NCBI GenBank assembly: GCA_017405085.1
Contig: JAFRBB010000008.1
Coordinates: 1,984 to 65,983, forward strand
DNA from: Eubacteriaceae bacterium
GTDB lineage: Bacteria > Bacillota > Clostridia > Eubacteriales > Eubacteriaceae
Length of the DNA stretch: 64,000 nucleotides
Direction: 5' to 3'
The notes below the pieces were generated by a model. The model ran no database searches. It saw only the letters and a list, made by a program, of their open reading frames with translations, and was not told the origin of the DNA. The translations under genes and the position numbers were made by a program. Of this stretch, positions 18,990 to 36,129 are shown piece after piece. How positions within the stretch are numbered: position 1 is the stretch's first letter; each line of letters starts with the position of its first letter.

Positions 18990-19018
18990 TTTCGCGGAAT
19001 AATAAATTCTGCGAAAAA
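18990..19018. repeat. left inverted repeat / candidate recombinase core site
   Basis: TTTCGCGGAATAATAAATTCTGCGAAAAA. It is internally dyad-symmetric, with 10-nt arms around AATAA. Confidence 0.9.
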
Positions 19019-19048
19019 TTAAGATGAAATTTCAGAAACTTTAAAGCT

Positions 19049-19077
19049 ATTTTACTATGTAAACGGATTTATGTCAA
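19049..19077 (-). promoter_or_regulatory. consensus sigma-70-type promoter pointing out of the element across the left repeat
   Basis: The minus strand reads TTGACA (19077-19072), a 17-nt spacer, then TAAAAT (19054-19049). Confidence 0.7.
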
Positions 19078-19162
19078 TTGGTGACACTACAAAAACAAGA
19101 CGGTTGATTTCTTTACTTTTTATCCTAAAACGCTTTAGGAAATGAGAAAGGAGATAAGTCGA

Positions 19163-20233
19163 ATGTCCAATTATTTTTTCAGTAATGCTGAGCTATCAGA
19201 ACGAATTGATCAAAAAATCTTGTATGTCTCATCCGATAAGTATATCGATCTGTCGAACCTTCAACCTGCCGAGGAGCGGTCGACCGACAATAAAACATCT
19301 TTTTCAGAAGTTGCGGGCGCATGGCTGAAATGGATTGAGCCGCGTCTAAAACTATCCAGTAAGAATAAATATGAATATATCACGAACTGTCATCTGCTTC
19401 CGGAATTTGGCAGTTTTTTTATTGAAGATATTTCAAGAACGGATGTTACGGTGTTTCGCGATACTTTAATGTTTCGGCTAGAGAGCAAATTACAAACGCC
19501 GCTGTCATCCGCAACGATCTCAGGCATTCTCAGCGTTTTGAAAAGTATATTTCGTTTTTCATCTGATGAACTCAATCTGAAAGTATTTGACATTGGCGGT
19601 ATTTCCGTGAAAACTGCGCAGAAGCCCCTTCAAATCCTCAGTCAAAGTGAACAACAAATTTTGAGTGATTATTTATTCGCAAATTATTCGTCAACGCATT
19701 TGGGTATCTTGATCTCATTATATATGGGACTTCGGTTAGGTGAAGTCTGTGCGCTTCAATGGCAAGATGTTTCCTTTGCTGATCAAACGATATTCGTACG
19801 GCAAACGATGCAACGCTTGAGATCAGACGAAGATCCTACGACACGAACAAAAGTCATTATTTCTGAGCCAAAAAGCGGACAATCTGTCAGACATGTGCCA
19901 ATTCCGGACAAACTCATGCATTTGTTTTGGGTATTGAATAAAGAAGATGGCGCCTTTGTTTTAAGCGGGAAAAAAGAAAAAGTTGTTGAGCCGAGAACAA
20001 TGCAAAATCGTTTTAAAACCATCCTGCGAAAATGTGGCATTAGAGATATCAACTATCACGCGCTCAGACACACTTTTGCCACACGAAGTGTAGAAGTTGG
20101 ATGTGATGTGAAAAGTCTCAGCGAAATTTTGGGTCATGCCTCTGTCGGCATAACTCTCAATCGATATGTTCATCCCTCAATGAAAATAAAAAAAGAACAA
20201 ATCAATCGTGTGTCGGATTTGTTCTCTGACTAA
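19163..20233 (+). CDS. tyrosine-type site-specific recombinase/integrase
   Basis: GLRLGEVCALQWQDV (Arg I), HALRHTFATR (His-x-x-Arg) and LGHASVGITLNRYVH (His/Tyr). An N-terminal SAM-like domain is present. ATG 19163 sits 9 nt after AAAGGAG, and the ORF could start at 19142. Confidence 0.9.
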   Translation: MSNYFFSNAELSERIDQKILYVSSDKYIDLSNLQPAEERSTDNKTSFSEVAGAWLKWIEPRLKLSSKNKYEYITNCHLLPEFGSFFIEDISRTDVTVFRDTLMFRLESKLQTPLSSATISGILSVLKSIFRFSSDELNLKVFDIGGISVKTAQKPLQILSQSEQQILSDYLFANYSSTHLGILISLYMGLRLGEVCALQWQDVSFADQTIFVRQTMQRLRSDEDPTTRTKVIISEPKSGQSVRHVPIPDKLMHLFWVLNKEDGAFVLSGKKEKVVEPRTMQNRFKTILRKCGIRDINYHALRHTFATRSVEVGCDVKSLSEILGHASVGITLNRYVHPSMKIKKEQINRVSDLFSD

Positions 20234-20241
20234 AAAGTATC

Positions 20242-20271
20242 GGCGTTACCTTTGTGTAACGTCGTTTTTTT
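20242..20271 (+). terminator. rho-independent terminator of the recombinase gene, just inside the right repeat
   Basis: GGCGTTAC-CTTTGT-GTAACGTC forms an 8-bp stem (one G-U pair). It is followed by G and TTTTTTT, and the T-run overlaps the right repeat. Confidence 0.75.
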
Positions 20272-20295
20272 CGCAGAATTTATTATTCCGCGAAA
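20267..20295. repeat. right inverted repeat / candidate recombinase core site
   Basis: TTTTTCGCAGAATTTATTATTCCGCGAAA is the reverse complement of 18990-19018 at 29 of 29 positions. Confidence 0.9.
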
Positions 20296-20542: not shown

Positions 20543-23500
20543 ATGAAAAAGAAGATCACATCGGTTTTGATTATTTTGTTGTGCGTGTTGATGGCGGTGC
20601 CCTGGGGGGTGTTTGCTCAGGCGGTGAACGCGGAAAAGAGCGCGGAGAACACACAGCAGCAAGCCACCGCGCCGGCGCCAACCCCGACAACTGAGCAGCC
20701 GGCAGAGACGTCTGCCGAACCGCGGGATGAATCGGCAAGCACCTTGGCGGATTATCCTGCCGGGAGAGCGGTGCTACGTAACGGGGAATATTTGCATAGC
20801 GTTTTTAGACAATTAAGTGGAGATATGTCAGACGAACTATATTCAAACAGTACTATCAAAGCGATTTTGCGATCAAATAGTCCCGCACCGTCCAGTGTGT
20901 CAACCATAAATCTTTCTATTAGCGATGTGTCCGTCACGGCCTGGTGGAACGCTAGCAGTCAAACAATCTACTGGTATTCGGAAGATGCGAAACCGATGCT
21001 CAACGCAGATTCAAGAAACATGTTTCGTAAATTAGGCAGTGTTAAAAAGATAGATGTTTCACATTTTGACACCTCGAAAGTAAAAGATATGAGATATATG
21101 TTTTGGGATTGTTATAGCTTGACCGAACTTGACGTCTCAAGCATTGATACCTCGAACGTGACGGATATGGGCTATATGTTTTTCGAATGCCGTAGCTTAA
21201 CCGGTCTGAATCTATCAAGCTTTGACACATCGAACGTGACGAATATGAGCAGTATGTTTTCCGGTTGTTCAAAATTAACCTATCTGGATGTATCAAACTT
21301 TGACACATCAAAAGTGACTGATATGAATGGTATGTTTTCGGACTGTGAAAGCTTAACCAGCCTTGATTTATCTAATTTTGACACCTCAAAAGTGACAGAT
21401 ATGAACGGTATGTTTATGGAATGCGGGAGCTTAACCAGCCTTGATTTATCTAATTTTGACACATCGAAAGTGCTAGATATGGGTTGGATGTTTAGGGAGT
21501 CTGGACAATTAAAAACAATTTATGTTTCTGAAAGCTTCACAACTGTAGATGCTGAATATGCTGAATCCATTTACTATATGTTTGGTAGTTGTTATTCTTT
21601 AGTCGGCGGAAATGGCACCAAATACGATTCCAGCCATAAGGATGCGGAATACGCCCGCATCGACAAGCCCGGTCAGCCGGGATATTTCACGTATAAAAAA
21701 TCATCACTCATACCGAAACCCATCATACCAACTCCAACGCCGGTAACACCAACACCGGATCCGGAAATAGAACCCTTTAAATGGGGTGTGGATAATTTTA
21801 GTTTTGAAAATATATCTGAAAATTTTTATACAATTTTAGATTACACAATAGGAAAAATTACAGGTCGAAAATATAAAACATATCGAACGCTGATTAATGG
21901 TAAATATCAAAATGCTTTGAAAAGCAAACTATCTCCGAAAGAATATTCCCGTATACTTGGTGTTGATGTTAACTATGAGAGGCCGCTTTGGATTGACAAT
22001 AAAGGAGAAAAACATTATGAATCAGAGATTGACAAAGAATGGGGTGGTTCATGCCAGGGGATGTCCACTTTGGTGCTTTTAGGAAAAGCAGGAATGGTGC
22101 CTTATTCTGAGTATGGTGGCTCAAGCATCCATTCTCTGCCGATGCCTAAAGACAATGATGATCTCTGTTCGCTGATTAACTATTATCAATTAACGCAAAG
22201 TACAGATACACTTAGGCAATTAATCTTGGAGACATACAAGAAGACAGATAAACATAATATACAACAGATTTTAGTTGAATTAAAGAAAAATGGAACGGTG
22301 CTTGTTGGATATAATTATCCAGGAGAAGGGCATGCTGTGATTGCCTATGGTGAAGGGGACGGTAGGATAATAGACGGCAAAACCTATGATAAATCCATCA
22401 AGATATGCGATCCCAATGATACTACGGAAAATAGTAATAATTTTATCTATTATGACTCCAATACATATGATTGGATTATTCCTAAAAAAAATAAAAATAT
22501 TAAGTCTTCTGCAGGAGCGAAAATAAGTAATGTTCTATCAGATCCCATTATGGCGAATCATAGTGGTTATTTAAGTTTAAGCGTTAAAACAAACGTGGAT
22601 ACCGCGATGGACAATGGCGATATTTCGACATTAGAAAATAAGACTTATATCGCGAGATTGGAAATCTATCAAGGCAATGTCAGCGGCATCAAAAAAGTCA
22701 CCAAAGACATTAACGGCAATTATGTCGAAAAAGCCGATCAGGGTGACGGCAGCGACATTGTTAAAGAAACAATCTACTCAGGCGATCAAGACGCCAAAGG
22801 CACGCCCGGCTACACCTTAAGCGACGCCGAATCGGCCTATCAAGTCACTCAGGACACCGCCGGCCCCATGGAATTGGTCTTGGATTATGAAAACACCCTG
22901 TATCACGTTCGCGCGGAAAAAGCAAAATCCGTCATCTTCGATAAAAACGGCTTTGTCTCCGTGGATGCCGACAAAGGCAACTGCGCCGTGGAAATGACAA
23001 ACAACAACGACAACCCGACAGATTGGTTCACCAATTACGCCAAAACCACCGATGCGACCAAGCTATCCATGACCAAAACAAAAGAAGGTTATGAAGTGGC
23101 CTCCGACAACTTGAAAGACACCAAAGTCATGGCCGCCAATAAAGAAGAAACAAAAGAAGAAAATGTATCCACGCAGAAAGACAAAATGATCATCTGTGAA
23201 ACGAAAAAAGATCTGGATGTGAAAGTGGACAACACCGGCGATGGAAAATATGAAACATCCATCGTGGACAATGATAAACCCTCGGGCGATCAAGCCATCG
23301 CCTACCGCACCCACGTGCAAAATGTGGGCTGGCAACCCTATATGACCAACGGGACCATCGCGGGCACCAGCGGTTTCGGCTATCGTCTGGAAGCCATGAA
23401 CATTAATCTGCAGAATCAAAAATACACAGGAGACATCGAATACCGCACCCATATTGAAAACATCGGTTGGGAAAGCGAATGGAAAAAGAACGACGCCATG

Positions 23501-24259
23501 AGCGGCACCAGCAACAGAGGGCTTCGCCTGGAAGCCATGCAAGTTCGCCTGACCGGCGAAATGGCGGAAAAATATGATGTTTATTATCGGGTGCACGCGC
23601 AAAATATCGGCTGGCTCGGTTGGGCGAAAAACGGCGAAGAGTCCGGCACAGCGGGCTATGGCTATCGTCTGGAAGCCATGCAGATCATGTTGGTGGACAA
23701 AGGCGGGGCTGCGCCGACGATTGCCCCGACTTCGGCAACGGACAAACCCTTTGTGGAAAAATTTAAAGATAATGTGAAAACAGACAGCCTCGTCGCTTAT
23801 CAAAACCACGTGCAAAACGTGGGTTGGCAGAACTACGCGGTGGACGGCGGGGTTGCCGGCACCAGCGGCCTTGGTTATCGTTTGGAAGGCATGAAGATTT
23901 TTCTGAATAATCCGAAATACAAAGGGGATATTGAATACCGTACGCACATTGAGAACATCGGCTGGGAAAATGAATGGAAAAAGAATGACGCCATGAGCGG
24001 CACCAGCGGCCTCGGGTATCGTTTGGAAGCCATGCAGGTGCGCCTGACTGGTGAGATGGCGAGTCACTATGATGTGTATTATCGTGTTCACGCACAGAAT
24101 TTCGGCTGGCTTGGCTGGGCGAAAAACGGAGAAGAATCCGGCACAGAGGGCTATGGATACCGTCTGGAAGCCATGCAGATTGTGTTGGTGGATAAAGACC
24201 TCGCGGCACTGAATATTTTACTGGCAAATAATGAAAACAGTCCCTTTGTTCAGAAATAG
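20543..24259 (+). CDS. secreted modular surface protein: signal peptide, P/T linker, DUF285/BspA-type LRR array, Cys-His-Asp peptidase-like domain, 6 ChW repeats
   Basis: MKKKITSVLIILLCVLMAVPWGVFAQAVNA signal peptide after a GGGAG RBS. About six FDTSKVTDMxxMFxxCxSLTxLDLSN units are present. GGSCQGMS, GEGHAVIAYG and ICDPND motifs follow. Six YRTHVQNVGWQ...GTSG...RLEAM repeats (ChW, Pfam PF07538-like) end the protein. The ORF-track start at 20480 is an upstream extension. Confidence 0.9.
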   Translation: MKKKITSVLIILLCVLMAVPWGVFAQAVNAEKSAENTQQQATAPAPTPTTEQPAETSAEPRDESASTLADYPAGRAVLRNGEYLHSVFRQLSGDMSDELYSNSTIKAILRSNSPAPSSVSTINLSISDVSVTAWWNASSQTIYWYSEDAKPMLNADSRNMFRKLGSVKKIDVSHFDTSKVKDMRYMFWDCYSLTELDVSSIDTSNVTDMGYMFFECRSLTGLNLSSFDTSNVTNMSSMFSGCSKLTYLDVSNFDTSKVTDMNGMFSDCESLTSLDLSNFDTSKVTDMNGMFMECGSLTSLDLSNFDTSKVLDMGWMFRESGQLKTIYVSESFTTVDAEYAESIYYMFGSCYSLVGGNGTKYDSSHKDAEYARIDKPGQPGYFTYKKSSLIPKPIIPTPTPVTPTPDPEIEPFKWGVDNFSFENISENFYTILDYTIGKITGRKYKTYRTLINGKYQNALKSKLSPKEYSRILGVDVNYERPLWIDNKGEKHYESEIDKEWGGSCQGMSTLVLLGKAGMVPYSEYGGSSIHSLPMPKDNDDLCSLINYYQLTQSTDTLRQLILETYKKTDKHNIQQILVELKKNGTVLVGYNYPGEGHAVIAYGEGDGRIIDGKTYDKSIKICDPNDTTENSNNFIYYDSNTYDWIIPKKNKNIKSSAGAKISNVLSDPIMANHSGYLSLSVKTNVDTAMDNGDISTLENKTYIARLEIYQGNVSGIKKVTKDINGNYVEKADQGDGSDIVKETIYSGDQDAKGTPGYTLSDAESAYQVTQDTAGPMELVLDYENTLYHVRAEKAKSVIFDKNGFVSVDADKGNCAVEMTNNNDNPTDWFTNYAKTTDATKLSMTKTKEGYEVASDNLKDTKVMAANKEETKEENVSTQKDKMIICETKKDLDVKVDNTGDGKYETSIVDNDKPSGDQAIAYRTHVQNVGWQPYMTNGTIAGTSGFGYRLEAMNINLQNQKYTGDIEYRTHIENIGWESEWKKNDAMSGTSNRGLRLEAMQVRLTGEMAEKYDVYYRVHAQNIGWLGWAKNGEESGTAGYGYRLEAMQIMLVDKGGAAPTIAPTSATDKPFVEKFKDNVKTDSLVAYQNHVQNVGWQNYAVDGGVAGTSGLGYRLEGMKIFLNNPKYKGDIEYRTHIENIGWENEWKKNDAMSGTSGLGYRLEAMQVRLTGEMASHYDVYYRVHAQNFGWLGWAKNGEESGTEGYGYRLEAMQIVLVDKDLAALNILLANNENSPFVQK
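21275..21500 (+). repeat. in-frame tandem repeats of the LRR coding unit, including a perfect 35-bp duplicate spaced 78 bp apart
   Basis: AGCTTAACCAGCCTTGATTTATCTAATTTTGACAC occurs at 21350 and again at 21428. The flanking units are highly similar. Confidence 0.8.
23291..24195 (+). repeat. ChW x6 coding block, copy A of a near-identical dispersed direct repeat
   Basis: It aligns without gaps to 24608-25512 (offset 1317) and to 29379-30283 (offset 6088). A-C similarity extends upstream to 22646 and 28734. Confidence 0.9.
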
Positions 24260-24487
24260 GATGGTGAATAAAATAATTTCGAGCGCTCTGATGGTCACAC
24301 TTACCCCATTTGTATAAAAGCAACACAACGCAACAAAGACAATCGAAAATGAAAATGCAAATTTTCAGTGAAATCAAGAAACAAAAAAACCGGAGGTGCG
24401 CAAAAGAAAATATAAAAGCAACAAACCATCATTTTGAATTGACCTTTACTGCCCATGAGATTCAAATAATTAATGAAAGGAAAACAT

Positions 24488-26572
24488 ATGAAAACCAAAT
24501 CTAAAGTTTTATTGAGTTTGATTGTTCTGATGGCGATGATGATCTTTTCGGCACCGGCGATGGCGCAGAATGCGGAAGGCAACGGTACTGCCAATGCGAC
24601 AGATAATCAAGCCATTGCCTACCGCACCCATGTGGAAAATGTGGGCTGGCAACCCTATATGACCAATGGCACCATCGCGGGTACCAGCGGTTTCGGTTAT
24701 CGTCTGGAAGCCATGAACATTAATCTGCAGAATCAAAAATACACCGGCGACATTGAATACCGCACCCACATAGAAAATATCGGTTGGGAAAATGAATGGA
24801 AAAAGAATGACGCCATGAGCGGCACCAGCAACAGAGGGCTTCGCCTGGAAGCCATGCAGGTGCGTTTGACTGGAGAGATGGCGGAAAAATATGATGTGTA
24901 CTACCGTGTTCACGCGCAAAATATCGGCTGGCTCGGCTGGGCGAAAAACGGAGAAGAGTCCGGCACGGCGGGCTATGGCTATCGCCTGGAAGCCATGCAG
25001 ATCATGCTGGTGGATAAAGGCGGGGCTGCGCCGACGATTGCCCCGACCTCGGCAACGGACAAATCCTTTGTGGAAAAATTTAAAGATAACGTGAAAACGG
25101 ATAGCCTCGTCGCTTATCAAAACCACGTGCAAAATGTGGGCTGGCAGAATTACGCGGTGGACGGCGGCGTTGCCGGCACCAGCGGCCTGGGTTATCGTTT
25201 GGAAGGCATGAAGATCTTTCTGAATAATCCGAAATACAAAGGGGATATTGAATATCGTACGCACATTGAGAATATCGGCTGGGAAAATGAATGGAAAAAG
25301 AATAACGCCATGAGCGGCACTAGTGGGCTCGGGTATCGTCTGGAAGCCATGCAAATTCGTTTGACCGGTGAAATGGCGGAAAAATATGATGTGTATTACC
25401 GTGTGCACGCGCAGAATATTGGATGGCTCGGTTGGGCGAAAAACGGAGAAGAATCCGGCACGGCGGGCTATGGCTACCGTCTGGAAGCCATGCAGATTGT
25501 GTTGGTGGACAAAGGCGGCAAGGCGCCGAACATTTCGCCGGCGAGCAATGACAACAGAGCGTTTATTGATAAAAACGCGCAGCCTGTACAACCCGTCGAA
25601 CCGGATAAACCCACATCAGACAGAGCGGTGCTGGATACCGGGAAAAATGTAAACACCGCTATCAAACAACTTAGCGGACAGGATGTTAGACAAGATATTG
25701 AAGCATACTATTCAGCAAATAATACAATAAAAGCGATTTTACGTTCAAAAAGTCCGGCTCCGTCAAGTATGACAACAAAAAATCTTTCGACAACAAGTAT
25801 GTCGGTCACAGCTTGGTGGGATGCAAACAGTCAAACAATTTATTGGTATTCGGAAGATTCGAATCCGATGTTAAACGAAGATTCCAGTCATATGTTTGCT
25901 AGGTTACTTGTTGTGGAAAACATAGATTTATCATATTTTGATACATCAAAAGTAACAAATATGTGTGGTATGTTTAGCGGTGATATTATGAGCGTTAATA
26001 GATTAGCCAATCTGGACGTTTCACATTTTGACACATCCCAGGTGACGAATATGAATGCCATGTTTGCCGATTGTGGCTTAACCGATCTGGACTTATCAAA
26101 CTTTGATACATCGAAGGTGACGAATATGAGTCAGATGTTTTACGGCTGTAGTAGCTTAATCAATCTGGACTTATCAAACTTTGACACATCGAAGGTGACG
26201 AATATGGGAAGTATGTTTAGCGGCTGTAATAGTTTAACCAGTCTGAACATGACGAATTTTAACACATCGAACGTGACGGGTATGTCCAATATGTTTGCTT
26301 ACTGTAAAAATATGACTGCTCTGGATGTATCGAACTTTGACACATCAAAAGTGACAGAGATGGCTAATATGTTTTCTGATTGCAATAAGTTAAAAACGAT
26401 ATACGTTTCCGACAAATTTACAACCCAAAGTGTAAATTCAAATTGGTGGATGTTTAGTGGTTGTTACTCTTTAATCGGTGGCAACGGCACCCCATATGAC
26501 GATAATCATAGAGATAAGGAATACGCCCGCATCGACAAACCGGGTCAGCCGGGATATTTTACACAGAAATAA
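24488..26572 (+). CDS. secreted surface protein: signal peptide, 6 ChW repeats, linker, DUF285/BspA-type LRR array
   Basis: MKTKSKVLLSLIVLMAMMIFSAPAMA signal peptide. The ChW block is followed by AILRSKSPAPS..., about seven FDTSKVTNM... units and a ...YARIDKPGQPGYFTQK C-terminus. The start could instead be 24473. Confidence 0.9.
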   Translation: MKTKSKVLLSLIVLMAMMIFSAPAMAQNAEGNGTANATDNQAIAYRTHVENVGWQPYMTNGTIAGTSGFGYRLEAMNINLQNQKYTGDIEYRTHIENIGWENEWKKNDAMSGTSNRGLRLEAMQVRLTGEMAEKYDVYYRVHAQNIGWLGWAKNGEESGTAGYGYRLEAMQIMLVDKGGAAPTIAPTSATDKSFVEKFKDNVKTDSLVAYQNHVQNVGWQNYAVDGGVAGTSGLGYRLEGMKIFLNNPKYKGDIEYRTHIENIGWENEWKKNNAMSGTSGLGYRLEAMQIRLTGEMAEKYDVYYRVHAQNIGWLGWAKNGEESGTAGYGYRLEAMQIVLVDKGGKAPNISPASNDNRAFIDKNAQPVQPVEPDKPTSDRAVLDTGKNVNTAIKQLSGQDVRQDIEAYYSANNTIKAILRSKSPAPSSMTTKNLSTTSMSVTAWWDANSQTIYWYSEDSNPMLNEDSSHMFARLLVVENIDLSYFDTSKVTNMCGMFSGDIMSVNRLANLDVSHFDTSQVTNMNAMFADCGLTDLDLSNFDTSKVTNMSQMFYGCSSLINLDLSNFDTSKVTNMGSMFSGCNSLTSLNMTNFNTSNVTGMSNMFAYCKNMTALDVSNFDTSKVTEMANMFSDCNKLKTIYVSDKFTTQSVNSNWWMFSGCYSLIGGNGTPYDDNHRDKEYARIDKPGQPGYFTQK
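24608..25512 (+). repeat. ChW x6 coding block, copy B
   Basis: It matches copies A and C. B-C similarity continues to about 25640 and 30411. Confidence 0.9.
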
Positions 26573-26720
26573 CGGCTCGTAGTTAATAGGAAAAATATTT
26601 CGGGCGCTCACAAGAGCGCCCCGCATCCCCGTTCAATCGGGGATGAAAAGAAAAGGGAGAGCATAAAGTTTTTTACGGCACCGGCGCCGCGGCGCATTGG
26701 ATTCGAGAAGGGAGTTTCTC

Positions 26721-29700
26721 ATGAAAAAGAAGATTACATCGGTTTTGATTATTATGCTGTGCGTGTTGATGGCGGTGCCCTGGGGTGTGTTTGCCCAGGC
26801 GGTGAACGCGGAAAAGAGCGCGGAGAACACACAGCAGCAGACCACTGCGCCCGCGCCAACCCCGACGCCGGAGACCACCGTGCCCGCGGCGGAGCCGACA
26901 CCGGAAGAACCGACGGTGACGCCTTCACCGGAGCCCACTACGACTGCGCCAGAGCCGACGCCAAATCAACCGGCGGAGACACCTCAGGAATCTCAGGATG
27001 AATCGGTGAGCACCTTGGCGGATTATCCCGACGGGAGAGCGGTGTTGGATACCGGGGATAACGTAAACTACGCGATTAAGCAACTGACCGGACAGGATAT
27101 GAAAAGATACAGGGGGAACGAAACAATACAAGCGATTCTACGTTCAAACAGTCCGGCGCCGGCAGGTGTGACGACAAAAAACCTTTCCATCAGCCGTGTG
27201 CCGGTGATAGCTTGGTGGGACGCGCAAGCTAAAACAATTTACTGGTATTCGAAAGATTCGAAACCGATGCTAAACGCGGATTCCGTACGTATATTCAGCT
27301 ACTTTACGCAATTAACCAGACTGGATTTATCACACTTTGACACATCGAAGGTGACAGATATGGGCGCGATGTTCGCTTACTGTGGTAAGCTAACTAGCTT
27401 GGATGTAACGCGTTTTAACACGTCGAATGTGACTAGTATGGAAAGTATGTTTGCAAACTGTCATGCAACCAGTTTGGATTTATCACATTTTGACACCTCG
27501 AAGGTGACAGATATACGTAATATGTTTTGGGGTTGTTCCGGTTTAACAAGGCTTGATTTATCTCGGTTTAACACATCGAAAGTGACTAATATGAGTTATA
27601 TGTTTTACTGTTGTACAAGTTTAACCAGACTGGATATATCAAATTTCGATACATCAAAAGTGACTAATATGAGTTTTATGTTTCTCCATTGCAGAAGTTT
27701 AAAAACCATTTACGCGTCTGAAAAATTTAAAACTCTCAATGTAACAGAATCAGATAATATGTTTAATGACTGTATTGCTTTGATTGGTGGCAACGGTACA
27801 GGATACGACGCTAACCATACAGATATTGAATACGCTCGCATCGACAAGCCGGGTCAACCGGGATATTTCACGGAAAAAGAAGCCTTTGAATGGGGTGTGG
27901 ATAATTTTAACTTTACCAATGAACGTTTAAATTTTTATACACTTGGAGAATTATTTACACCCAATGTAAAAACATATAGAACACTGATCAATTCTAAGTA
28001 TGTTCATGCTTTAGGTGATAAATTAACTGCGAAAGAATTTGCGTACATTTTGAGTGGCTATAATCCAACCGGAGAACCGTTGTGGGCAGACAAAGAAGGC
28101 AATGAACATTATGAACCAAGGATTGACCAAAATTGGTTTGGGGCGTGTAATGGCATGTCTTCTTTGGTTCTTTTGGGAAAAGCGGGAATGGTGCCGTATT
28201 CAGAGTATGGCGGATCAAGCATTCATTCTCTTTCTAAACCTGTTGATAATGATGAACTCAGTTCTCTAATTACCTATTATCAATTATTACAGTTTAAAGA
28301 TTGGAATTGGCGATTGAGTAGTAGGACATTAAAGCAAACTCATGCGACTAACATACAGAATATCTTGAAAGGTTTGAAGAAAAAGGGAACTGTGCTTGTT
28401 GGTTATCAATCCTCGCATGGTGGACACGTCGTAATTGCGTATGGTGAAGGAGACGGCAGGACTATAAACGGAAGAATGTATGATAAATGTATCAAGATAT
28501 GTGATCCCAATGATACTTCGGAAAACAGTGATAACTTTCTGTATTATGATTCAAAAACATATGATTGGATTATTCCCAAAAATGAAAAGATTATTTCTGC
28601 GGAAGGAGCGAAAATAAATACTGTTTTATCAAATCCTGCTGATGTAAATCATGACGGATATTTGAGTACCAATATCAGAACATACTCGGACGATACAACT
28701 GATGATGATATTTCGCTATTAGAAGACGCACCATATATTGCGAGATTGGAAATCTATCAAGGTAATGTCAGTGGCATCAAAAAAGTCACTAAAGACGCGA
28801 ACGGCAATTATGTCGAAAAAGCCGAACAAGGTGACGGCAGCGATATTGTGAAAGAAACATTTTATTCAGGTGATCAGGATGACAAAGGCATACCCGGTTA
28901 CACCTTAAGCGACGCCGAATCGGCGTATAAAGTCACTCAGAATACTGCCGGTCCCATGGAATTAATCCTGGATTATGAAAACACCCTGTATCACGTTCGC
29001 GCGGAAAAGGCCAAATCTGTCATCTTCGATAAAAACGGTTTTGTCTCTGTGGATGCCGACAAAGGCAACTGCGCCGTTGAAATGACAAACAACAACGACA
29101 ATCCGACGGATTGGTTTACCAATTACGCCAAAACCACCGACGCCACCAAGCTCTCCATGACCAAGACAAACCAAGGTTATGAAGTGGCCTCCGACAACTT
29201 AAAAGACACCAAAGTCATGGCCGCCAATAAAGAAGAAACCAAAGAAGAAAAGGTATCAACGCAGAAAGACAAAATGATCATCTGCGAAACGAAAAAAGAT
29301 TTGGATGTGAAAGTGGACAACACCGGCGATGGAAAATATGAAACATCTATCGTGGACGAGGCTAAACCCTCGGACGAGCAAGCCATCGCCTACCGCACTC
29401 ATGTGCAAAATGTCGGATGGCAACCCTATATGACCAACGGAACTATCGCGGGTACCAGCGGTTTCGGTTATCGTCTGGAAGCCATGAACATTAATCTGCA
29501 GAATCAAAAATACACCGGCGACATTGAATACCGCACCCACATTGAAAACATCGGTTGGGAAAATGAATGGAAAAAGAATGACGCCATGAGCGGCACCAGC
29601 GGTCTCGGGTATCGTCTGGAAGCAATGCAGATCCGTTTGACTGGAGGGATGGCGGAAAAATATGATGTGTACTACCGGGTGCACGCGCAAAATATCGGCT

Positions 29701-31631
29701 GGCTCGGTTGGGCGAAAAACGGAGAAGAGTCCGGTACAGCAGGCTATGGCTATCGTCTGGAAGCCATGCAGATTATGCTGGTGGACAAAGGCGGGGCTGC
29801 GCCAACAATCGCGCCGACTTCGGCAACGGACAAACCCTTTGTGGAAAAATTTAAAAATAACGTGAAAACGGATAGCCTCGTCGCTTATCAAAACCACGTG
29901 CAAAATGTGGGCTGGCAGAATTACGCGGTGGACGGCGGCGTTGCCGGGACCAGCGGCCTTGGTTATCGTTTGGAAGGCATGAAGATCTTTCTGAATAATC
30001 CGAAATACAAAGGGGATATTGAATACCGTACGCACATTGAGAACATCGGCTGGGAAAATGAATGGAAAAAGAATGACGCCATGAGCGGCACCAGTGGTCT
30101 CGGGTATCGTCTGGAAGCCATGCAGATCCGTTTGACCGGTGAGATGGCCAATCACTACGATGTTTATTATCGTGTTCATGCGCAGAATATCGGATGGCTC
30201 GGCTGGGCGAAAAACGGAGAAGAGTCCGGCACGGCGGGCTATGGCTACCGCCTGGAAGCCATGCAGATTGTGTTGGTGGACAAAGGTGGCAAGGCGCCGA
30301 ACATTTCGCCGGCGAGCAATGACAACAGAGCGTTTATTGATAAAAACGCGCAGCCTGTACAACCCGTCGAACCGGATAAACCCACATCAGACAGAGCGGT
30401 GTTGGATACCGGGAAAAATGTGAATACCTCGATCAAACAATTGAGCGGAGACGGTTCAAACTACAATGATGATAACAAAACGATAAAAGCGGTTGTACGA
30501 TCGAACAGTCCGGCGCCGTCAGGTGTGACAACCAAGAATTTGTCTACAACAAGTGTGCCGATCACAGCCTGGTGGGTCGCGAGCAGCCAAACAATTTATT
30601 GGTATTCAAAAGATCCGAAACCGATGCTCAACGCGGATTCCAGCTATATGTTTGCAGATTTATATGTTGTAGAAAATATAGATGCAGCGCACTTTGACAC
30701 ATCGAACGTGACGAATATGAGCAATATGTTTGTTTCCTGTGAAAGTTTAACTGATTTGAATGTGAAAAACTTAGATACATCGAAAGTAACTGATATGCAC
30801 GATATGTTTTTCGGCTGTAAGGGTTTAACCAGTCTTGACTTGAAAAATTTCAACACATCGAACGTGACAAGCATGTTCGCTATGTTTTCTGGTTGTGAAA
30901 GCTTAACCAATTTGAACGTCACGCATTTTAATACATCGAAAGTGACTGATATGAATTATATGTTTTCCGAATGTAAAAGTTTAGCCAATTTGGATGTCAC
31001 ACATTTTGACACATCGAATGTGACTGAGTTTCAAGCTATGTTTAGGAATTGTGATAGCTTAACCAGTCTGGATGTTACGCATTTTGACACATCGAAAGTA
31101 GCTACAATGGAGAGTATGTTTGAAAGCTGTGATAGATTAACTAATCTGGACGTCACACATTTCGACACTTCGAATGTAACGACTATGCGTATGATGTTTT
31201 GCTTATGTAAAAGTTTAGTCGATTTGGACGTCACACATTTTAACACATCGAATGTGACGAATATGCTGGATATGTTTATAGGATGCAGTAATTTAACCAA
31301 TTTGGACGTCACGCACTTTGACACATCGAATGTGACTAATATGAACGGTATGTTTGCTAACTGTGATAGCTTAACCAGTCTGGATGTCACAAGTTTTAAC
31401 ACATCGAATGTGACTTCAATGAGCAGCATGTTTGCTAGTTGTAAAAATTTAAAAACGATATACGCATCCAATGAATTCACAATAGGGAATGATCAGTCTT
31501 CTAGCAGAATGTTTATATATTCCTCCGCTTTAGTCGGGGGCAAAGGCACCGCATATGACGCCAACCATACGGATGGCGAATACGCTCGAATTGATAAGGA
31601 AGGTCAGCCGGGCTATTTCACACAGAAATAA
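26721..31631 (+). CDS. secreted giant surface protein: signal peptide, P/T linker, LRR array 1, Cys-His-Asp peptidase-like domain, 6 ChW repeats, linker, LRR array 2 (about 11 units)
   Basis: It shares its leader and signal peptide with the 20543 gene (MKKKITSVLIIMLCVLMAVPWGVFAQAVNA). FGACNGMS, HGGHVVIAYG and ICDPND motifs are present. The ChW block and the C-terminal half are colinear with the 24488 gene. Confidence 0.9.
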   Translation: MKKKITSVLIIMLCVLMAVPWGVFAQAVNAEKSAENTQQQTTAPAPTPTPETTVPAAEPTPEEPTVTPSPEPTTTAPEPTPNQPAETPQESQDESVSTLADYPDGRAVLDTGDNVNYAIKQLTGQDMKRYRGNETIQAILRSNSPAPAGVTTKNLSISRVPVIAWWDAQAKTIYWYSKDSKPMLNADSVRIFSYFTQLTRLDLSHFDTSKVTDMGAMFAYCGKLTSLDVTRFNTSNVTSMESMFANCHATSLDLSHFDTSKVTDIRNMFWGCSGLTRLDLSRFNTSKVTNMSYMFYCCTSLTRLDISNFDTSKVTNMSFMFLHCRSLKTIYASEKFKTLNVTESDNMFNDCIALIGGNGTGYDANHTDIEYARIDKPGQPGYFTEKEAFEWGVDNFNFTNERLNFYTLGELFTPNVKTYRTLINSKYVHALGDKLTAKEFAYILSGYNPTGEPLWADKEGNEHYEPRIDQNWFGACNGMSSLVLLGKAGMVPYSEYGGSSIHSLSKPVDNDELSSLITYYQLLQFKDWNWRLSSRTLKQTHATNIQNILKGLKKKGTVLVGYQSSHGGHVVIAYGEGDGRTINGRMYDKCIKICDPNDTSENSDNFLYYDSKTYDWIIPKNEKIISAEGAKINTVLSNPADVNHDGYLSTNIRTYSDDTTDDDISLLEDAPYIARLEIYQGNVSGIKKVTKDANGNYVEKAEQGDGSDIVKETFYSGDQDDKGIPGYTLSDAESAYKVTQNTAGPMELILDYENTLYHVRAEKAKSVIFDKNGFVSVDADKGNCAVEMTNNNDNPTDWFTNYAKTTDATKLSMTKTNQGYEVASDNLKDTKVMAANKEETKEEKVSTQKDKMIICETKKDLDVKVDNTGDGKYETSIVDEAKPSDEQAIAYRTHVQNVGWQPYMTNGTIAGTSGFGYRLEAMNINLQNQKYTGDIEYRTHIENIGWENEWKKNDAMSGTSGLGYRLEAMQIRLTGGMAEKYDVYYRVHAQNIGWLGWAKNGEESGTAGYGYRLEAMQIMLVDKGGAAPTIAPTSATDKPFVEKFKNNVKTDSLVAYQNHVQNVGWQNYAVDGGVAGTSGLGYRLEGMKIFLNNPKYKGDIEYRTHIENIGWENEWKKNDAMSGTSGLGYRLEAMQIRLTGEMANHYDVYYRVHAQNIGWLGWAKNGEESGTAGYGYRLEAMQIVLVDKGGKAPNISPASNDNRAFIDKNAQPVQPVEPDKPTSDRAVLDTGKNVNTSIKQLSGDGSNYNDDNKTIKAVVRSNSPAPSGVTTKNLSTTSVPITAWWVASSQTIYWYSKDPKPMLNADSSYMFADLYVVENIDAAHFDTSNVTNMSNMFVSCESLTDLNVKNLDTSKVTDMHDMFFGCKGLTSLDLKNFNTSNVTSMFAMFSGCESLTNLNVTHFNTSKVTDMNYMFSECKSLANLDVTHFDTSNVTEFQAMFRNCDSLTSLDVTHFDTSKVATMESMFESCDRLTNLDVTHFDTSNVTTMRMMFCLCKSLVDLDVTHFNTSNVTNMLDMFIGCSNLTNLDVTHFDTSNVTNMNGMFANCDSLTSLDVTSFNTSNVTSMSSMFASCKNLKTIYASNEFTIGNDQSSSRMFIYSSALVGGKGTAYDANHTDGEYARIDKEGQPGYFTQK
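29379..30283 (+). repeat. ChW x6 coding block, copy C
   Basis: It matches copy A (offset 6088) and copy B (offset 4771) without gaps. Confidence 0.9.
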
Positions 31632-31734
31632 AGGCGCATTATTGCTAGAAAAAATGAATTTCGGGCGCTCGCAAGAGCGCCCGCATCCCATGAAGCGATA
31701 AAGCATCAATACAAAGAGAGAGGAGATAAGATTA

Positions 31735-34020
31735 ATGAAAAAGAAATTGACAGTGTTGATGGCAGTCCTTTGTCTGTGCTTGGGAATGAATATCATGGCG
31801 CAATCAACCGTTCAATCGAGCGGCATGACTTTTGCGATTGGTGACCCGCGGACTGCTTCCCTTGTTCAAATGGAAGATGCCGCAGTAAAAGATGGAAAAC
31901 TGGTGATTCCTGAGACGATTTCCACCGAAAACGGCGAAGCGCGGGTGACAGACATCGGCGTGAACGCGCTCAAAACGACGGCTCCGATTAGCTTGATTGA
32001 GATTCCCGCGTCGGTTGGCAACATAGACCTCACCAATGCCGACTATTTAAAAGACGCGACGATTGTTTGCGCAAAGGGAAGCGTGGCGGATGAATTCGCG
32101 AGGAGACAACACATCGCCGTGTCCTACACTGAGGATAGCGGGTCTAAATCAGACCAAAGCGAAGCCAGCGAACCAATAAAACCGTCGATGACTCTGGATG
32201 AAATCAAAAACGCTTTTTCTTATCGTGCTCATGTGGCCAATATTGGATGGCAACCTGCGGTGCGTCTTGGGAAGACAGCGGGAACCACAGGCAGAGGATT
32301 TGGCCTGGAAGCGCTGGAAATCGACACCGGTATTGCCGATAAAACAAAACTCGGAATTTCTGCCGAGGCCCATGTTGCCAATGTCGGTTGGATGAATCCG
32401 GTAACGGACGGACAAATGGTGGGCACCACGGGACAGGGCAATGCCATCGAGGCCATCAAAATCAGCTTGACGGGAAGCGATGCCGGCGCCTTTGATCTTT
32501 ACTATCGGATCCACGTTCAAAACTATGGATGGCTGGATTGGGCCAAAAACGGAGAAAAGGCCGGAACCGAAGGCTTTGGTTATCAAACAGAAGCGATTGA
32601 GATCATGATCGTCGCGAAGGATGACGCCGCGCCCGGAAAAACAGATCGTCCTTTTGTGGATAGCTCCCTTTTAACAAACGGAAGCATCACCTACCGGGCG
32701 CACAGTCAAAATCTTGGATGGCAAAATGATGTGGCTGCCGGTGAAACAGCCGGAGCGGAAGGGCTTCGAATGGAGGCTTTTCAAATCAACGCGACAGTTG
32801 ACAATTTGCCGGAAGGCGAAGCCAAGGTCCAATACCGCGCCCATGTGCAAAATATTGGTTGGCAGGGTTGGAAACGGGATGGTCAGATTGCCGGAACCAC
32901 GGGTAAGGGCTATCGCGTGGAAGCAATCGAGATGAAACCCTCGCCCCAAATGGAAAAAGCGTATGATGTCTATTATCGGGTCTCAATCGCCCATTTCGGC
33001 TGGCTGGATTGGGCCAAAAACGGCCAGAGCGCCGGCAGTACTAGCATGAGTTTTCAAATAGAGAGAGTGCAGGTGGTTTTGCTTCCCAAAGGCAGCGAAG
33101 CTCCCGGAGAGACAGCTCGACCTTTTGTTACACCAGATTATGTAAGGTCATTATGTGACGTTGAATACCAAGGGCATGTCCAAAATATCGGTTGGATGGA
33201 TTGGACCAAAAACGGGAACCACATCGGAACGATGGGTAGTGGACTCCGGCTTGAAGCTTTTTCGATGAAACTTGGCGGTCATTTCGCGCAAAATTCAAGT
33301 GTCTCCTATCAAGCACACCTTCAAAGTACCGGATGGCAGGGATGGAAGACCCAAGGACAAACCGCCGGAGAAACCGGAACGGCAAAACGCATTGAATGTT
33401 TTCAGGTGAGTTTAAACGGTGAAGCTGCTGCGGTTTATGACGTCTACTATCATGCCTATGTGCAAAACTATGGCTGGCTGGATTGGGCGAAAAACGGAGG
33501 ATGGGCCGGTACAACGGACGGAAGCCTCCGCATCGAAGCGATTTCTGTGATGTTAGTTCCCAAAGGTCAGCCCGCGCCGGGTCCGACGTTAAGACCGTAT
33601 ATCAAAATTGAGAAATATCCCCAGGCTTCGGCAGTGTTAAATCGAATCGGACGAAGTTTGCCGGCGGCCTTTGCCTGGTCGGTTAATATGCCTTACCAAA
33701 CCATGGCAACATCACCGGTGCTCTCATGCAGACAATACGCCGATTATGGGTTTGTCCATTACCGCGGCAATTGCTATGTATATGCGTCTACATTCTGTGA
33801 AATGGCAAAAGCCTTGGGCTATAGAGCTTTCTTTGTTGCCGGTTCGGTTCCTAGTCTCAGCGGTGGTTTAACACCCCACGGATGGGTTGAAATTGAAGAA
33901 CCTGATGGGTTATGGGTTTATGACCCTGAATTCCAGCATGAAACCGGGTTAAATGGTTATCGTTTCCGTTATGGGCAACACAACACCTGGATGTATGCCG
34001 GCGGACATCGAGTGAATTAG
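31735..34020 (+). CDS. secreted protein: signal peptide, short LRR_5-like N-domain, 9 ChW repeats, C-terminal transglutaminase-like cysteine peptidase domain
   Basis: MKKKLTVLMAVLCLCLGMNIMAQS signal peptide. Nine Y(R/Q)xHVxNxGW repeats fall in three triplets. The C-terminus has YRGNCYVYAS...HGWVEIEEPDGLWVYDPE, a Cys/His/Asp transglutaminase-core pattern. Confidence 0.85.
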   Translation: MKKKLTVLMAVLCLCLGMNIMAQSTVQSSGMTFAIGDPRTASLVQMEDAAVKDGKLVIPETISTENGEARVTDIGVNALKTTAPISLIEIPASVGNIDLTNADYLKDATIVCAKGSVADEFARRQHIAVSYTEDSGSKSDQSEASEPIKPSMTLDEIKNAFSYRAHVANIGWQPAVRLGKTAGTTGRGFGLEALEIDTGIADKTKLGISAEAHVANVGWMNPVTDGQMVGTTGQGNAIEAIKISLTGSDAGAFDLYYRIHVQNYGWLDWAKNGEKAGTEGFGYQTEAIEIMIVAKDDAAPGKTDRPFVDSSLLTNGSITYRAHSQNLGWQNDVAAGETAGAEGLRMEAFQINATVDNLPEGEAKVQYRAHVQNIGWQGWKRDGQIAGTTGKGYRVEAIEMKPSPQMEKAYDVYYRVSIAHFGWLDWAKNGQSAGSTSMSFQIERVQVVLLPKGSEAPGETARPFVTPDYVRSLCDVEYQGHVQNIGWMDWTKNGNHIGTMGSGLRLEAFSMKLGGHFAQNSSVSYQAHLQSTGWQGWKTQGQTAGETGTAKRIECFQVSLNGEAAAVYDVYYHAYVQNYGWLDWAKNGGWAGTTDGSLRIEAISVMLVPKGQPAPGPTLRPYIKIEKYPQASAVLNRIGRSLPAAFAWSVNMPYQTMATSPVLSCRQYADYGFVHYRGNCYVYASTFCEMAKALGYRAFFVAGSVPSLSGGLTPHGWVEIEEPDGLWVYDPEFQHETGLNGYRFRYGQHNTWMYAGGHRVN

Positions 34021-35918: not shown

Positions 35919-36129
35919 GGGGTTTTCTTTTGAACAAACGTATTTTAAGCGGCCATGGAGGTGACGGTAATCTGTTGGTTTGAACTGTCATTAACAAAGT
36001 TTTTATTTAAAATACGTTAAAAAGTCTGTCGGGTGAAAAGACTAAATTATACATGTTGTACTTGAAAGCCTGCAGTAGGATTTTATGTAAAAAAGTAAAA
36101 TATGTATGCTTCAAGATGAGGAGAGAATC

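Follow-up and report, generated by a model that had tools for sequence, protein, structure and literature searches.

Modules of surface-protein genes re-joined at a putative wall-binding ChW block, and a candidate inverton, in a strain-variable island of a Eubacteriaceae species

Introduction

The pneumococcal proteins PspA and PspC, the streptococcal M-like proteins and the Listeria internalins form mosaic paralogous families that arise through homologous recombination and gene conversion. The locus described here resembles them in having a conserved, putatively wall-binding module, variable heads, mosaic tracts and swaps at the module, but it lacks the silent cassettes and the dedicated expression site. 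Programmed antigenic variation of the cassette type (pilE/pilS, vlsE) was considered for this locus and rejected, since its genes 1-3 are all complete open reading frames (ORFs), each with a start codon and a signal peptide, and promoterless truncated cassettes are absent.

Proteins with clostridial hydrophobic W (ChW) repeats were first described in Clostridium acetobutylicum. In Clostridia, ChW repeats (Pfam PF07538) occur in multiples of three and accompany varied functional domains in secreted proteins, and the triplet has been proposed as a functional unit for surface interaction (PMC5817068). Both properties recur here, with six, six, six and nine repeats in four neighbouring genes and three in other genes of the same island. 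Described ChW proteins are mostly endolysins or wall hydrolases, whereas the ChW6 (six-repeat) blocks of this locus are combined with PARCEL/BspA-type leucine-rich repeats (LRR) and a rare papain-like domain; in gene 3 the block is internal to the protein, and in gene 2 it immediately follows the signal peptide. ChW6 modules in other database proteins are joined to many different, mostly cell-wall-active, enzyme domains. PARCEL/DUF285 and BspA-family LRR proteins are secreted proteins with a variable number of 26-aa (78-nt) repeats (here 5, 6 and 5 + 10), and the dyad symmetry of PARCEL coding DNA is found here too. The accessory, horizontally variable setting of the present genes matches what Roske et al. 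(2010, PMC2996958) described for PARCEL genes; in Mollicutes these encode lipoproteins, whereas here anchoring would be provided by ChW in a Gram-positive wall.

A further group of systems bears on the start of the island. In the Salmonella Hin/H segment, E. coli fimS (FimB/FimE), the Clostridioides difficile RecV switches and the tyrosine-recombinase invertons of Bacteroides, short perfect inverted repeats (IRs) enclose a segment that has a terminal promoter and precedes genes for surface structures. The cassette reported below has the same position, and its recombinase gene lies inside the segment, as in Hin, although Hin is a serine recombinase and the enzyme here is of the tyrosine type; location of the recombinase gene within the invertible segment occurs occasionally (PMC5903667). 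In contrast to the known switches, the promoter here precedes the recombinase gene and faces away from it, the segment measures about 1.3 kb, and a single orientation is present in every assembly compared across an IR arm.

Results and discussion

Surface-protein genes in a strain-variable island

The window analysed here is a 64,000-nt stretch of contig JAFRBB010000008.1 (assembly GCA_017405085.1) from a Eubacteriaceae species known from metagenome assemblies, whose sample names suggest the ruminant gut as habitat; source samples include SRR12529039, SRR12529046 and SRR12529053, along with the ENA assemblies ERZ28018966 and ERZ28654617. This gut bacterium is host to three neighbouring modular surface-protein genes (genes 1-3), which are the core of a 20.7-kb strain-variable island. 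The features discussed in this and the following two sections are:

18752-39443, no strand: strain-variable island, 20.7 kb, between rpsI and a HAD-family gene
20543-24259, + strand (ORF from 20480): gene 1, 1238 aa (ORF list, domain searches); signal peptide, low-complexity linker, PARCEL/DUF285 LRR (about 20765-21700) with 5 motif copies, Cys-His-Asp papain-like plus beta-rich domain (21776-23290), ChW6 block A, 21-codon tail
23291-24195, + strand: ChW6 block A, made up of two 495-nt ChW triplets that share about 75% identity
24196-24259, + strand: C-terminal tail and stop codon of gene 1, with homology to the linker that follows ChW6 in genes 2 and 3
24488-26572, + strand (ORF from 24473): gene 2 (protein P0132), 694 aa; signal peptide, ChW6 block B, linker, PARCEL LRR with six motif copies
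24608-25512, + strand: ChW6 block B, aligned without gaps
26601-26621, no strand: GC-rich hairpin (GGGCGCTC-loop-GAGCGCCC) downstream of gene 2
26721-31631, + strand (ORF from 26697): gene 3, 1636 aa; signal peptide, linker, LRR with 5 motif copies, papain-like domain (27871-29378), ChW6 block C, linker (30284-30411), LRR with 10 motif copies
29379-30283, + strand: ChW6 block C, with a short conversion tract at columns about 223-237
31735-34020, + strand: gene 4; signal peptide, N-terminal domain, nine ChW repeats, transglutaminase-like core

Alignment of the flanks revealed nine conspecific assemblies without the island, with a 401-nt intergenic region in its place and flanks 98-99% identical to those of the window. 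Homology breaks 3 nt past the rpsI stop codon (18751) and returns at the ATG of the HAD-family gene (39444). The island ends carry no att-like direct repeats (longest shared word at most 10 nt) and the whole intergenic region is swapped, for which reasons an integrase-mobilised genomic island was rejected. An Rfam search of the island, covering elements such as riboswitches, returned none. The presence/absence polymorphism is joined by variation in content: two island haplotypes were found, and with only two the order of events is weakly constrained.

According to Pfam, genes 1-3 have six ChW repeats apiece (301-306 bits, cut-off 22; E about 1e-92) and gene 4 has nine (381 bits); DUF285 (PF03382) was detected in genes 1-3 as well, and the NCBIfam PARCEL repeat model TIGR02167 scored 184-450 bits against a cut-off of 30, with a period of 78 nt (26 aa). 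Signal-peptide-like N-termini are seen in the translations of genes 1-4. Genes 1-3 encode paralogous secreted surface proteins that display PARCEL/BspA-type LRR and papain-like Cys-His-Asp domains, and their ChW repeats would hold them non-covalently on the cell wall; gene 4 is a more distant paralogue, with about 36% amino-acid identity in the ChW region. The domain orders proposed in the first-pass annotation are borne out by Pfam and NCBIfam: signal peptide-LRR-middle domain-ChW6 in gene 1, signal peptide-ChW6-linker-LRR in gene 2, and signal peptide-LRR-middle domain-ChW6-linker-LRR in gene 3. Gene 3 is organised, as that annotation also stated, like a fusion of gene 1 with gene 2, being colinear with gene 1 (71% amino-acid identity over gene 3 residues 2-1216) and then with gene 2 (77% over residues 889-1519).

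The resemblance extends to non-coding DNA. The 5' UTR of gene 1 recurs before gene 3, and the 3' flank of gene 2, including its hairpin, recurs after gene 3, where a similar hairpin lies at 31661-31683; the gene 2 hairpin is also kept upstream of gene 3 and upstream of both gene-1-like genes of a second haplotype (L007). The gene 1 protein (P0002) and the gene 3 protein (P0001) were each found identical on three contigs, and an exact look-up of the gene 3 protein returned no record. In protein searches with gene 3 and its ChW6-linker region, most matches were unspecific DUF285 or ChW proteins; close relatives were limited to proteins of the window itself, a gene-1-like protein of the second haplotype (P0003, 62%) and a partial protein (P0026, 63%).

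The middle domain had been labelled peptidase-like. The label holds at the level of motifs, since C93 (GSCxGM), H186 (GGHAV) and D212 (CDPN) are invariant in nine sequences with identity as low as 24%, and the putative catalytic Cys, His and Asp follow the canonical order of papain-like (clan CA) enzymes; it is less secure at the level of fold. Pfam Peptidase_C70 matched with E = 0.015, below the cut-off, and a PDB sequence search with the domain gave nothing relevant. The best Foldseek matches of an AF2 model (pLDDT 82) were clan CA proteins (Josephin-like, IdeS/IdeC, SpeB and MCF), all with E > 0.1, and neither of two Foldseek searches gave a significant match.

Shared blocks and traces of past recombination

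The three ChW6 blocks align without gaps over 905 nt at the offsets given in the first-pass annotation, with identities of 91.6% for A-B (offset 1317), 91.3% for A-C (offset 6088) and 93.0% for B-C (offset 4771). Its outer limits are likewise confirmed: similarity between genes 1 and 3 reaches upstream to 22646 (91.2% over 22646-24195), that between genes 2 and 3 reaches downstream to about 25640 (93.7% over 24608-25640), and beyond these limits identity drops at once to about 28%, the random level. Because 1317 = 3 x 439 and genes 1 and 2 share a frame, a crossover between A and B would be in frame, as had been predicted. The differences between copies had been described as scattered substitutions; they are instead clustered and mosaic, with longest exact runs of 50-114 nt.

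Synonymous divergence between genes 1 and 3 changes along their length. The LRR and the beginning of the middle domain give dS values from about 0.9 up to saturation, against 0.32 for the signal peptide; from 22676 to 24176 most windows fall at 0.16-0.57, with two higher ones (0.71 and 1.08), and dN in this interval never exceeds 0.08. Five ChW6 copies from the two haplotypes (A, B, C, L7X and L7g1b) were subjected to the gene-conversion check that had been called for, using run-length, four-gamete and PHI-like tests, and proved to be a mosaic rather than the product of one tree. Four-gamete failures affected 701 of the 1378 informative site pairs, the PHI-like test gave p = 0.02, and the longest identical runs were significant for B-C, B-L7X, C-L7g1b and A-C (permutation p <= 0.001). 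B and C are 100% identical over columns 76-150 and B and L7X over columns 151-225, while block C has private substitutions, and a derived 15-nt tract in the second ChW repeat of gene 3 is identical to the second-triplet copies (ChW5-to-ChW2). A mosaic for which a single tree is statistically rejected points to gene conversion or unequal crossover, and a role of the ChW6 blocks as past recombination substrates is well supported by these alignments.

The second haplotype (L007/L009) belongs to the same species, with a core flank 99.1% identical to that of the window. It contains a protein with Ig domains that carries ChW6-linker-LRR, 91.6% identical to 29375-31359, so that the gene-3-type module sits on a different N-terminus and homology begins at the 5' edge of ChW6. 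This swap of a module between haplotypes is accompanied by gene-1-type genes with the same tail and by a truncated gene 4. The second haplotype has neither the gene-2-type (signal peptide-ChW6-linker-LRR) nor the gene-3-type architecture, so that neither can be dated. The ChW6 copies differ from one another by 7-12%, and no genome has homogenised its own set. They are 91.3-93.0% identical to each other in the window and 88.1% in L007, against 89.5-94.1% for comparisons between the two genomes; as copies within a genome are no closer than copies between genomes, concerted evolution is not indicated.

Origin of gene 3

The first-pass annotation considered that an ancestral fused gene might later have split, on the grounds that the gene 1 tail resembles a linker. 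The homology itself is confirmed, at 74-76% nucleotide identity between the tail and the linker of genes 2 and 3. A tail-like element, with 63-65% nucleotide identity to the gene 1 tail, is however also located between the two ChW triplets of each block, and this weakens the argument for a later split; the tail/linker element looks like a part of the ChW-triplet unit. Similar-looking linker motifs were noticed by eye in the translation after the gene 4 triplets. In addition, the gene 1 tail shares 94% nucleotide identity with the tail of a gene-1-like gene of L007, and this conservation in the second haplotype indicates that the gene-1-type terminus is old. Fusion by one unequal crossover, following tandem duplication of the gene 1-gene 2 pair, would be the simpler direction.

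The explanation that we favour, with a probability of roughly 0.75, is tandem duplication followed by an unequal-crossover fusion that generated gene 3 and by later conversion, all of it historical and not programmed variation. We infer both the direction (fusion rather than split) and the duplication step. The gene 1-gene 2 pair would first have been duplicated in tandem, with gene 3 starting 6178 bp, one unit, after gene 1. In the second copy, an unequal homologous crossover near the 5' end of the two ChW6 blocks would then have removed the equivalent of the 1317-bp interval, that is, the tail, the stop codon, the intergenic region and the signal peptide. Short-tract gene conversion would afterwards have acted in ChW6, at the end of the domain upstream and in the signal-peptide region, leaving the LRR parts to diverge much further than the converted regions. 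Such events would be RecA-type exchanges on modular repeats in the past, with no programmed variation system. The N-terminal half of gene 3 could also derive from a more distant paralogue instead of a direct copy of gene 1, and the saturated dS in the LRR parts is consistent with that source.

Whether the repeats still generate variants is a separate matter. The first-pass annotation predicted fusion, split and deletion variants, and a locus acting as a contingency mechanism for surface variation would now yield deletion, duplication and fusion alleles of 1317, 4771 and 6088 bp. The direct repeats are 0.9-1.55 kb long, 91-94% identical and in frame, their exact runs of up to 114 nt exceed the usual minimal length for RecA pairing, and earlier exchange is evident, the second haplotype showing that modules can be re-joined. 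Nevertheless, the copies are 7-12% diverged and no closer within a genome than between genomes, and homeologous recombination at such divergence is, as a rule, strongly suppressed. Independent assemblies have the same structure, in one independent contig with 99.98% identity at the DNA level, although these are consensus assemblies from which rare alleles could escape. No fusion of genes 1 and 2, and no deletion product, was present among the closest matches in a search of 5.8 billion proteins. Variants arising now are thus not supported, and we regard active recombination as unlikely. At the opposite extreme, the ChW6 similarity could reflect purifying selection on an old duplication, without later conversion or crossover. 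Very low dN/dS in ChW6 (dN 0-0.08) and the 88-94% identity of all copies, whatever their genome, would agree with this; yet dS shifts several-fold along one alignment, the run-length and four-gamete tests reject a single tree, and discrete pair-specific identical tracts are present, the ChW5-to-ChW2 tract being visible, which renders static paralogues improbable.

Two further alternatives are given very little weight. A metagenome chimera of gene-1-like and gene-2-like sequence, joined through ChW6, might be suspected because the window apparently derives from a metagenome assembly and the repeats measure about 0.9-1.5 kb. The longest exact match (114 nt), however, is shorter than the k of 141 implied by the contig names (k141_...) of two supporting assemblies, the identical 1636-aa protein is found on three contigs, and block C has private substitutions of its own. 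An independent contig (L130) runs from the last part of gene 1 through genes 2 and 3 and is 99.98% identical to the window over 22727-31788. A paralogue-derived origin of the two L130 SNPs by micro-conversion was checked and ruled out. Site-specific shuffling of the surface genes by the adjacent tyrosine recombinase, in the style of a shufflon or of Mycoplasma vsa/vpma, is suggested by the recombinase gene that heads the cluster and by the existence of such shuffling in Mycoplasma surface lipoproteins (PMC2268961). Against it, the 29-nt recombinase site occurs only twice, both copies flanking the recombinase's own gene, and a shufflon-type mechanism was rejected on this basis; the repeats of the surface genes are direct, long and diverged instead of short conserved sites, and no significant inverted repeats link the genes.

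The sharing of modules at this locus is ordinary recombination-driven evolution of a surface-protein family. As a clean example of how Gram-positive gut bacteria re-join existing modules at a conserved, putatively wall-binding repeat, it has the two parent architectures and the fused product standing side by side, inside a presence/absence island. It also carries a warning for annotation, as such loci are readily collapsed or mis-joined.

A candidate inverton at the island start

A cassette at the start of the island, with a tyrosine recombinase gene inside perfect 29-bp inverted repeats, had been overlooked in the first-pass annotation. Its features are:

18990-19018, + strand: left inverted-repeat arm (TTTCGCGGAATAATAAATTCTGCGAAAAA), perfect, 29 nt
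19049-19077, - strand: predicted sigma-70-like promoter, TTGACA-17-TAAAAT, 11/12, by consensus match only
19163-20233, + strand: tyrosine recombinase gene, 356 aa, Phage_integrase and SAM-like N domain, between the inverted repeats
20241-20264, + strand: terminator-like hairpin and T-run, immediately 3' of the recombinase gene and adjoining the right IR
20267-20295, - strand: right inverted-repeat arm, 29 nt

The 29-nt repeat has two copies in the window, with 0 expected by chance, and similarity between the two island haplotypes stops exactly at the outer edge of the right IR. The predicted promoter is the best in the region; it is located about 30 nt inside the left arm, and transcription from it would leave the cassette across that arm, in the direction opposite to gene 1. 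Recombinase genes flanked by IRs were also found in relatives, at 32-40% identity (L018, L020, L064/L076, L098, L099 and L101). The promoter geometry is kept in L009, L098, L099, L101 and L020, and an equivalent outward promoter, again by consensus match, lies 26-37 nt from the left IR in six of the eight cassettes. An IR-bounded segment with a recombinase gene and a predicted promoter that would face the regulated genes once flipped is the layout of an inverton, and these features give the cassette the appearance of an invertible switch. This predicted invertible promoter cassette probably gates expression of the cluster. We propose more tentatively, at somewhat less than even odds, that the cassette (18990-20295, ~1.3 kb) represents an uncharacterised, recurrent class of self-contained invertons that control surface structures in Firmicutes.

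Among the consensus assemblies compared, the inverted orientation was not found: L001-L006 (with an identical recombinase), L009 and the window are all alike, and the cassettes of L064 and L076 are co-oriented too. A recombinase scan of metagenome and genome contigs yielded relatives at no more than 43% identity and no further strains of the species.

If the inverton reading is true, a flip would switch the whole ChW surface-protein island on, while other loci would toggle one promoter between two divergent operons. Tad pili (L099, L101), an S8 surface protease (L098) and InlB-repeat proteins (L064) would be controlled in a like manner. Module shuffling would then constitute a slow evolutionary layer of surface variation and the inverton a fast programmed one. 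A cassette that inverts would amount to a switch that recurs in little-studied Clostridia and acts on pili, proteases and adhesins, which makes it the most useful lead from this locus. The left junction of the flipped cassette is predicted to read ATTCTGCGAAAAA joined to AACGACGTTACACAAAGG.

Gene layout, shared blocks and domains

The ORF listing gives four successive plus-strand genes at the locus, with starts chosen from the conserved RBS, signal-peptide alignments and database proteins, and likely to be the true ones:

20543-24259, plus strand: gene 1 (ORF, likely start); middle domain at 21776-23290
24488-26572, plus strand: gene 2 (ORF, likely start)
26721-31631, plus strand: gene 3 (ORF, likely start); middle domain at 27871-29378
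31735-34020, plus strand: gene 4 (ORF, likely start)

The six-repeat ChW blocks (ChW6) of genes 1, 2 and 3, here A, B and C, share ungapped identities over 905 nt of 91.6% (A-B), 91.3% (A-C) and 93.0% (B-C). Ungapped identity is 91.2% between 22646-24195 and 28734-30283 (genes 1 and 3) and 93.7% between 24608-25640 and 29379-30411 (genes 2 and 3), and drops to about 28% beyond these limits; the repeat offsets of the first-pass annotation are exact. Its description of gene 3 as the gene 1 architecture joined to gene 2 is borne out by alignment of gene 3 residues 2-1216 with gene 1 and 889-1519 with gene 2, and the A/B crossover it envisaged would indeed stay in frame, because 1317 = 3 x 439 and genes 1 and 2 share a frame. 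An assembly artefact is made very unlikely by the short exact matches between block copies (the longest being 50, 107 and 114 nt), by identical proteins on separate contigs (three for gene 1, four for gene 2, three for gene 3), and by an independent contig, L130, which covers the end of gene 1 with genes 2 and 3 and over 22727-31788 matches the window at 99.98% identity.

Pfam assigns six ChW repeats and DUF285/LRR to each of genes 1-3, and nine ChW repeats with a transglutaminase-like core to gene 4. The literature treats the ChW repeat as a triplet-based module for interaction with the wall or surface (PMC5817068), and the nearest ChW6 relatives are joined to L,D-transpeptidase, amidase, GH25, M23, CHAP, CAP, transglutaminase-like and similar domains. 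The LRR of genes 1-3 is the 26-residue PARCEL repeat (NCBIfam), in agreement with the 78-nt periodicity of the DNA. Short inverted repeats dotted over the LRR regions (21287-21309, 25925-25947, 26096-26112 and others) were rejected as recombinase sites; they are the dyad symmetry described for PARCEL coding repeats (PMC2996958).

The middle domain is of a rare family: a word-indexed search gave about 11 matches at 27-44% identity, most of them bearing dockerin or SLH modules. The Cys, His and Asp residues of the family are invariant, and behind the putative catalytic part comes a beta-rich domain of about 250 residues. Pfam and PDB gave no significant match, and Foldseek searches with AF2 models of reasonable quality (pLDDT 77.5 and 82.3) returned weak clan-CA resemblances only; the label 'peptidase-like' is thus plausible but unproven.

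A strain-variable island with two haplotypes

A look-up of the identical S9 protein yielded ten conspecific loci, nine of which (L008, L010-L017) have just a 401-nt spacer from rpsI to a HAD-family gene, at the position where the window holds 20.7 kb (18752-39443). The whole cluster is an island. Homology stops 3 nt past the rpsI stop codon and returns at the HAD start codon, and no att-like repeats were found at the two ends. The distal island holds the following genes:

34809-35918: Acyl_transf_3 acyltransferase
36106-37650 and 37725-39089: two paralogous zinc-ribbon proteins

A second, strongly diverged island haplotype occurs in L009 plus L007 (also in L131, and in the NCBI MAG GCA_017434635.1), in this order:

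1: recombinase cassette
2: CHAP-Ricin-ChW3
3: gene-1-like gene
4: ChW3 protein
5: Ig-domain protein with C-terminal ChW6-linker-LRR
6: second gene-1-like gene, with a TGG-to-TAG change in the fifth ChW repeat
7: short ChW3-transglutaminase gene, equivalent to the gene 4 tail
8: zinc-ribbon genes

The zinc-ribbon genes are kept at 79-84% nucleotide identity, and the acyltransferase region is not in any window segment to which L007 matched. The TAG (L007 13850-13852) replaces a conserved Trp codon and either truncates the protein or is a sequencing error.

Over 29375-31359 of gene 3, the Ig-ChW6-linker-LRR gene matches it at 91.6% identity, so homology begins at the ChW6 edge; within one species, the two haplotypes thus attach one C-terminal module to N-terminal parts unrelated to each other. 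Comparison across strains thus makes fusion at the ChW6 hinge visible on an evolutionary scale, through this re-joined module; the nine other loci lack the island.

Outside the island, similarity to island-less conspecific assemblies stops at 47705. The gene at 47941-50067 encodes a further ChW3 protein with BspA LRR, CAP and Big_2 domains, and from 47706 onward there is probably another surface-protein locus that varies between strains.

Recombination in the past, and probably rare today

In the codon alignment of genes 1 and 3, synonymous divergence (Nei-Gojobori dS) has a high and a low regime. From the LRR through the first two thirds of the middle domain it is about 0.9 to saturated. The signal peptide has a dS of 0.32, and over 22676-24176 most windows give 0.16-0.57 (two are higher, 0.71 and 1.08), with dN there not exceeding 0.08. 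Judged from these codon comparisons, such a several-fold step cannot come from selection on protein sequence; the low-dS segments share more recent ancestry. In a gapless alignment of the window's three ChW6 copies with two of L007 (L7X and L7g1b), all five are mosaics: B and C are 100% identical over columns 76-150, B and L7X 100% over columns 151-225, and C and L7g1b 99% over columns 376-450. Past recombination is also supported by a GENECONV-style permutation of polymorphic sites (p <= 0.001 in four pairs), by the four-gamete test (failed by 701 of 1378 informative site pairs) and by a PHI-like statistic (p = 0.02). A single conversion tract is legible in the sequence itself: the second ChW repeat of gene 3 has 'GGTCTCGGGTATCGT', identical to second-triplet copies, where all four other first-triplet copies have 'AACAGAGGGCTTCG(C/T)'.

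As an active process, however, recombination finds no such support. ChW6 identities within a genome (91.3-93.0% in the window, 88.1% in L007) are no higher than those between the two (89.5-94.1%), hence concerted evolution is absent; divergence among the copies is 7-12%, against 99.1% identity between the two haplotypes in the core flank. Neither the protein database searched nor the other contigs examined contained fusion or deletion alleles. On these sequence comparisons the repeats are old paralogues between which exchange has been patchy, and present-day rearrangement, possible but unproven, is probably rare. What stands of the first-pass proposal is the history, in which modules were re-joined and patched by homologous recombination, the ordinary evolutionary mode of repeat-anchored surface-protein families.

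As to direction, the start of gene 3 lies 6178 bp after that of gene 1, precisely one unit of genes 1 and 2. A copy of the 48-nt 5' leader of gene 1 precedes gene 3, and the 3' flank and hairpin of gene 2 recur behind it. The gene 1-gene 2 pair was probably duplicated in tandem, after which a single unequal crossover near the ChW6 5' end would have made gene 3; block C, with A-like sequence upstream of it and B-like from about column 76 on, fits this sequence of events. The alternative, a fused ancestor later split, had been suggested, as one of two directions, from the gene 1 tail, which is homologous to the gene 2/3 linker (74-76% nucleotide identity) and 94% conserved in the second haplotype. 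Yet a tail-like element (63-65% identity to the tail) also lies between both ChW triplets of each block, and gene 4 triplets are followed by linker motifs of like appearance (translation read by eye), so the tail looks like part of the ChW-triplet unit and not a split relic. We infer that fusion is the simpler direction.

Separately, a GC-rich hairpin (GGGCGCTC-loop-GAGCGCCC) is conserved between surface genes at 26601-26650, 31661-31690 and, in L007, ~200-300 and ~9870-9950, followed in three of the four places by a second (CATCCCCG...CGGGGATG); these hairpins have no plus-strand T-run after them and no Rfam match.

A putative invertible recombinase cassette

The unexpected element of the locus, unmentioned in the first-pass annotation, is a putative inverton heading this presence/absence island:

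18990-19018 and 20267-20295: 29-nt perfect inverted repeats flanking the recombinase gene
19077..19049, minus strand: predicted promoter TTGACA-17-TAAAAT, best consensus match in 15.6 kb
19163-20233: tyrosine recombinase gene

The promoter lies 30 nt inside the left repeat, facing outward, and a predicted terminator follows the recombinase gene just short of the right repeat; from there to gene 1 no plus-strand promoter-like site was found. Inversion would turn the promoter toward gene 1 and carry the terminator away; the cassette is a candidate switch, working by inversion, for the surface-protein genes. Every assembly compared has the same orientation and the inverted one was not found, so the switch is predicted rather than demonstrated. 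Hin likewise has its gene within the segment that inverts (PMC5903667); the cassette here would be a tyrosine-recombinase version, of which a limited literature search found no description. In the second haplotype the cassette is 88.5% conserved, and similarity runs precisely to the right repeat's outer edge and stops there. Relatives of the recombinase in other Firmicutes (32-40% identity) also lie between inverted repeats, of 20-28 nt and differing sequence. A strong promoter match facing outward lies 26-37 nt inside the left repeat of six of eight cassettes, and the co-directional neighbours of the relatives' cassettes are genes for surface or secretion structures, namely an S8 surface protease, the Tad pilus and InlB-repeat proteins.
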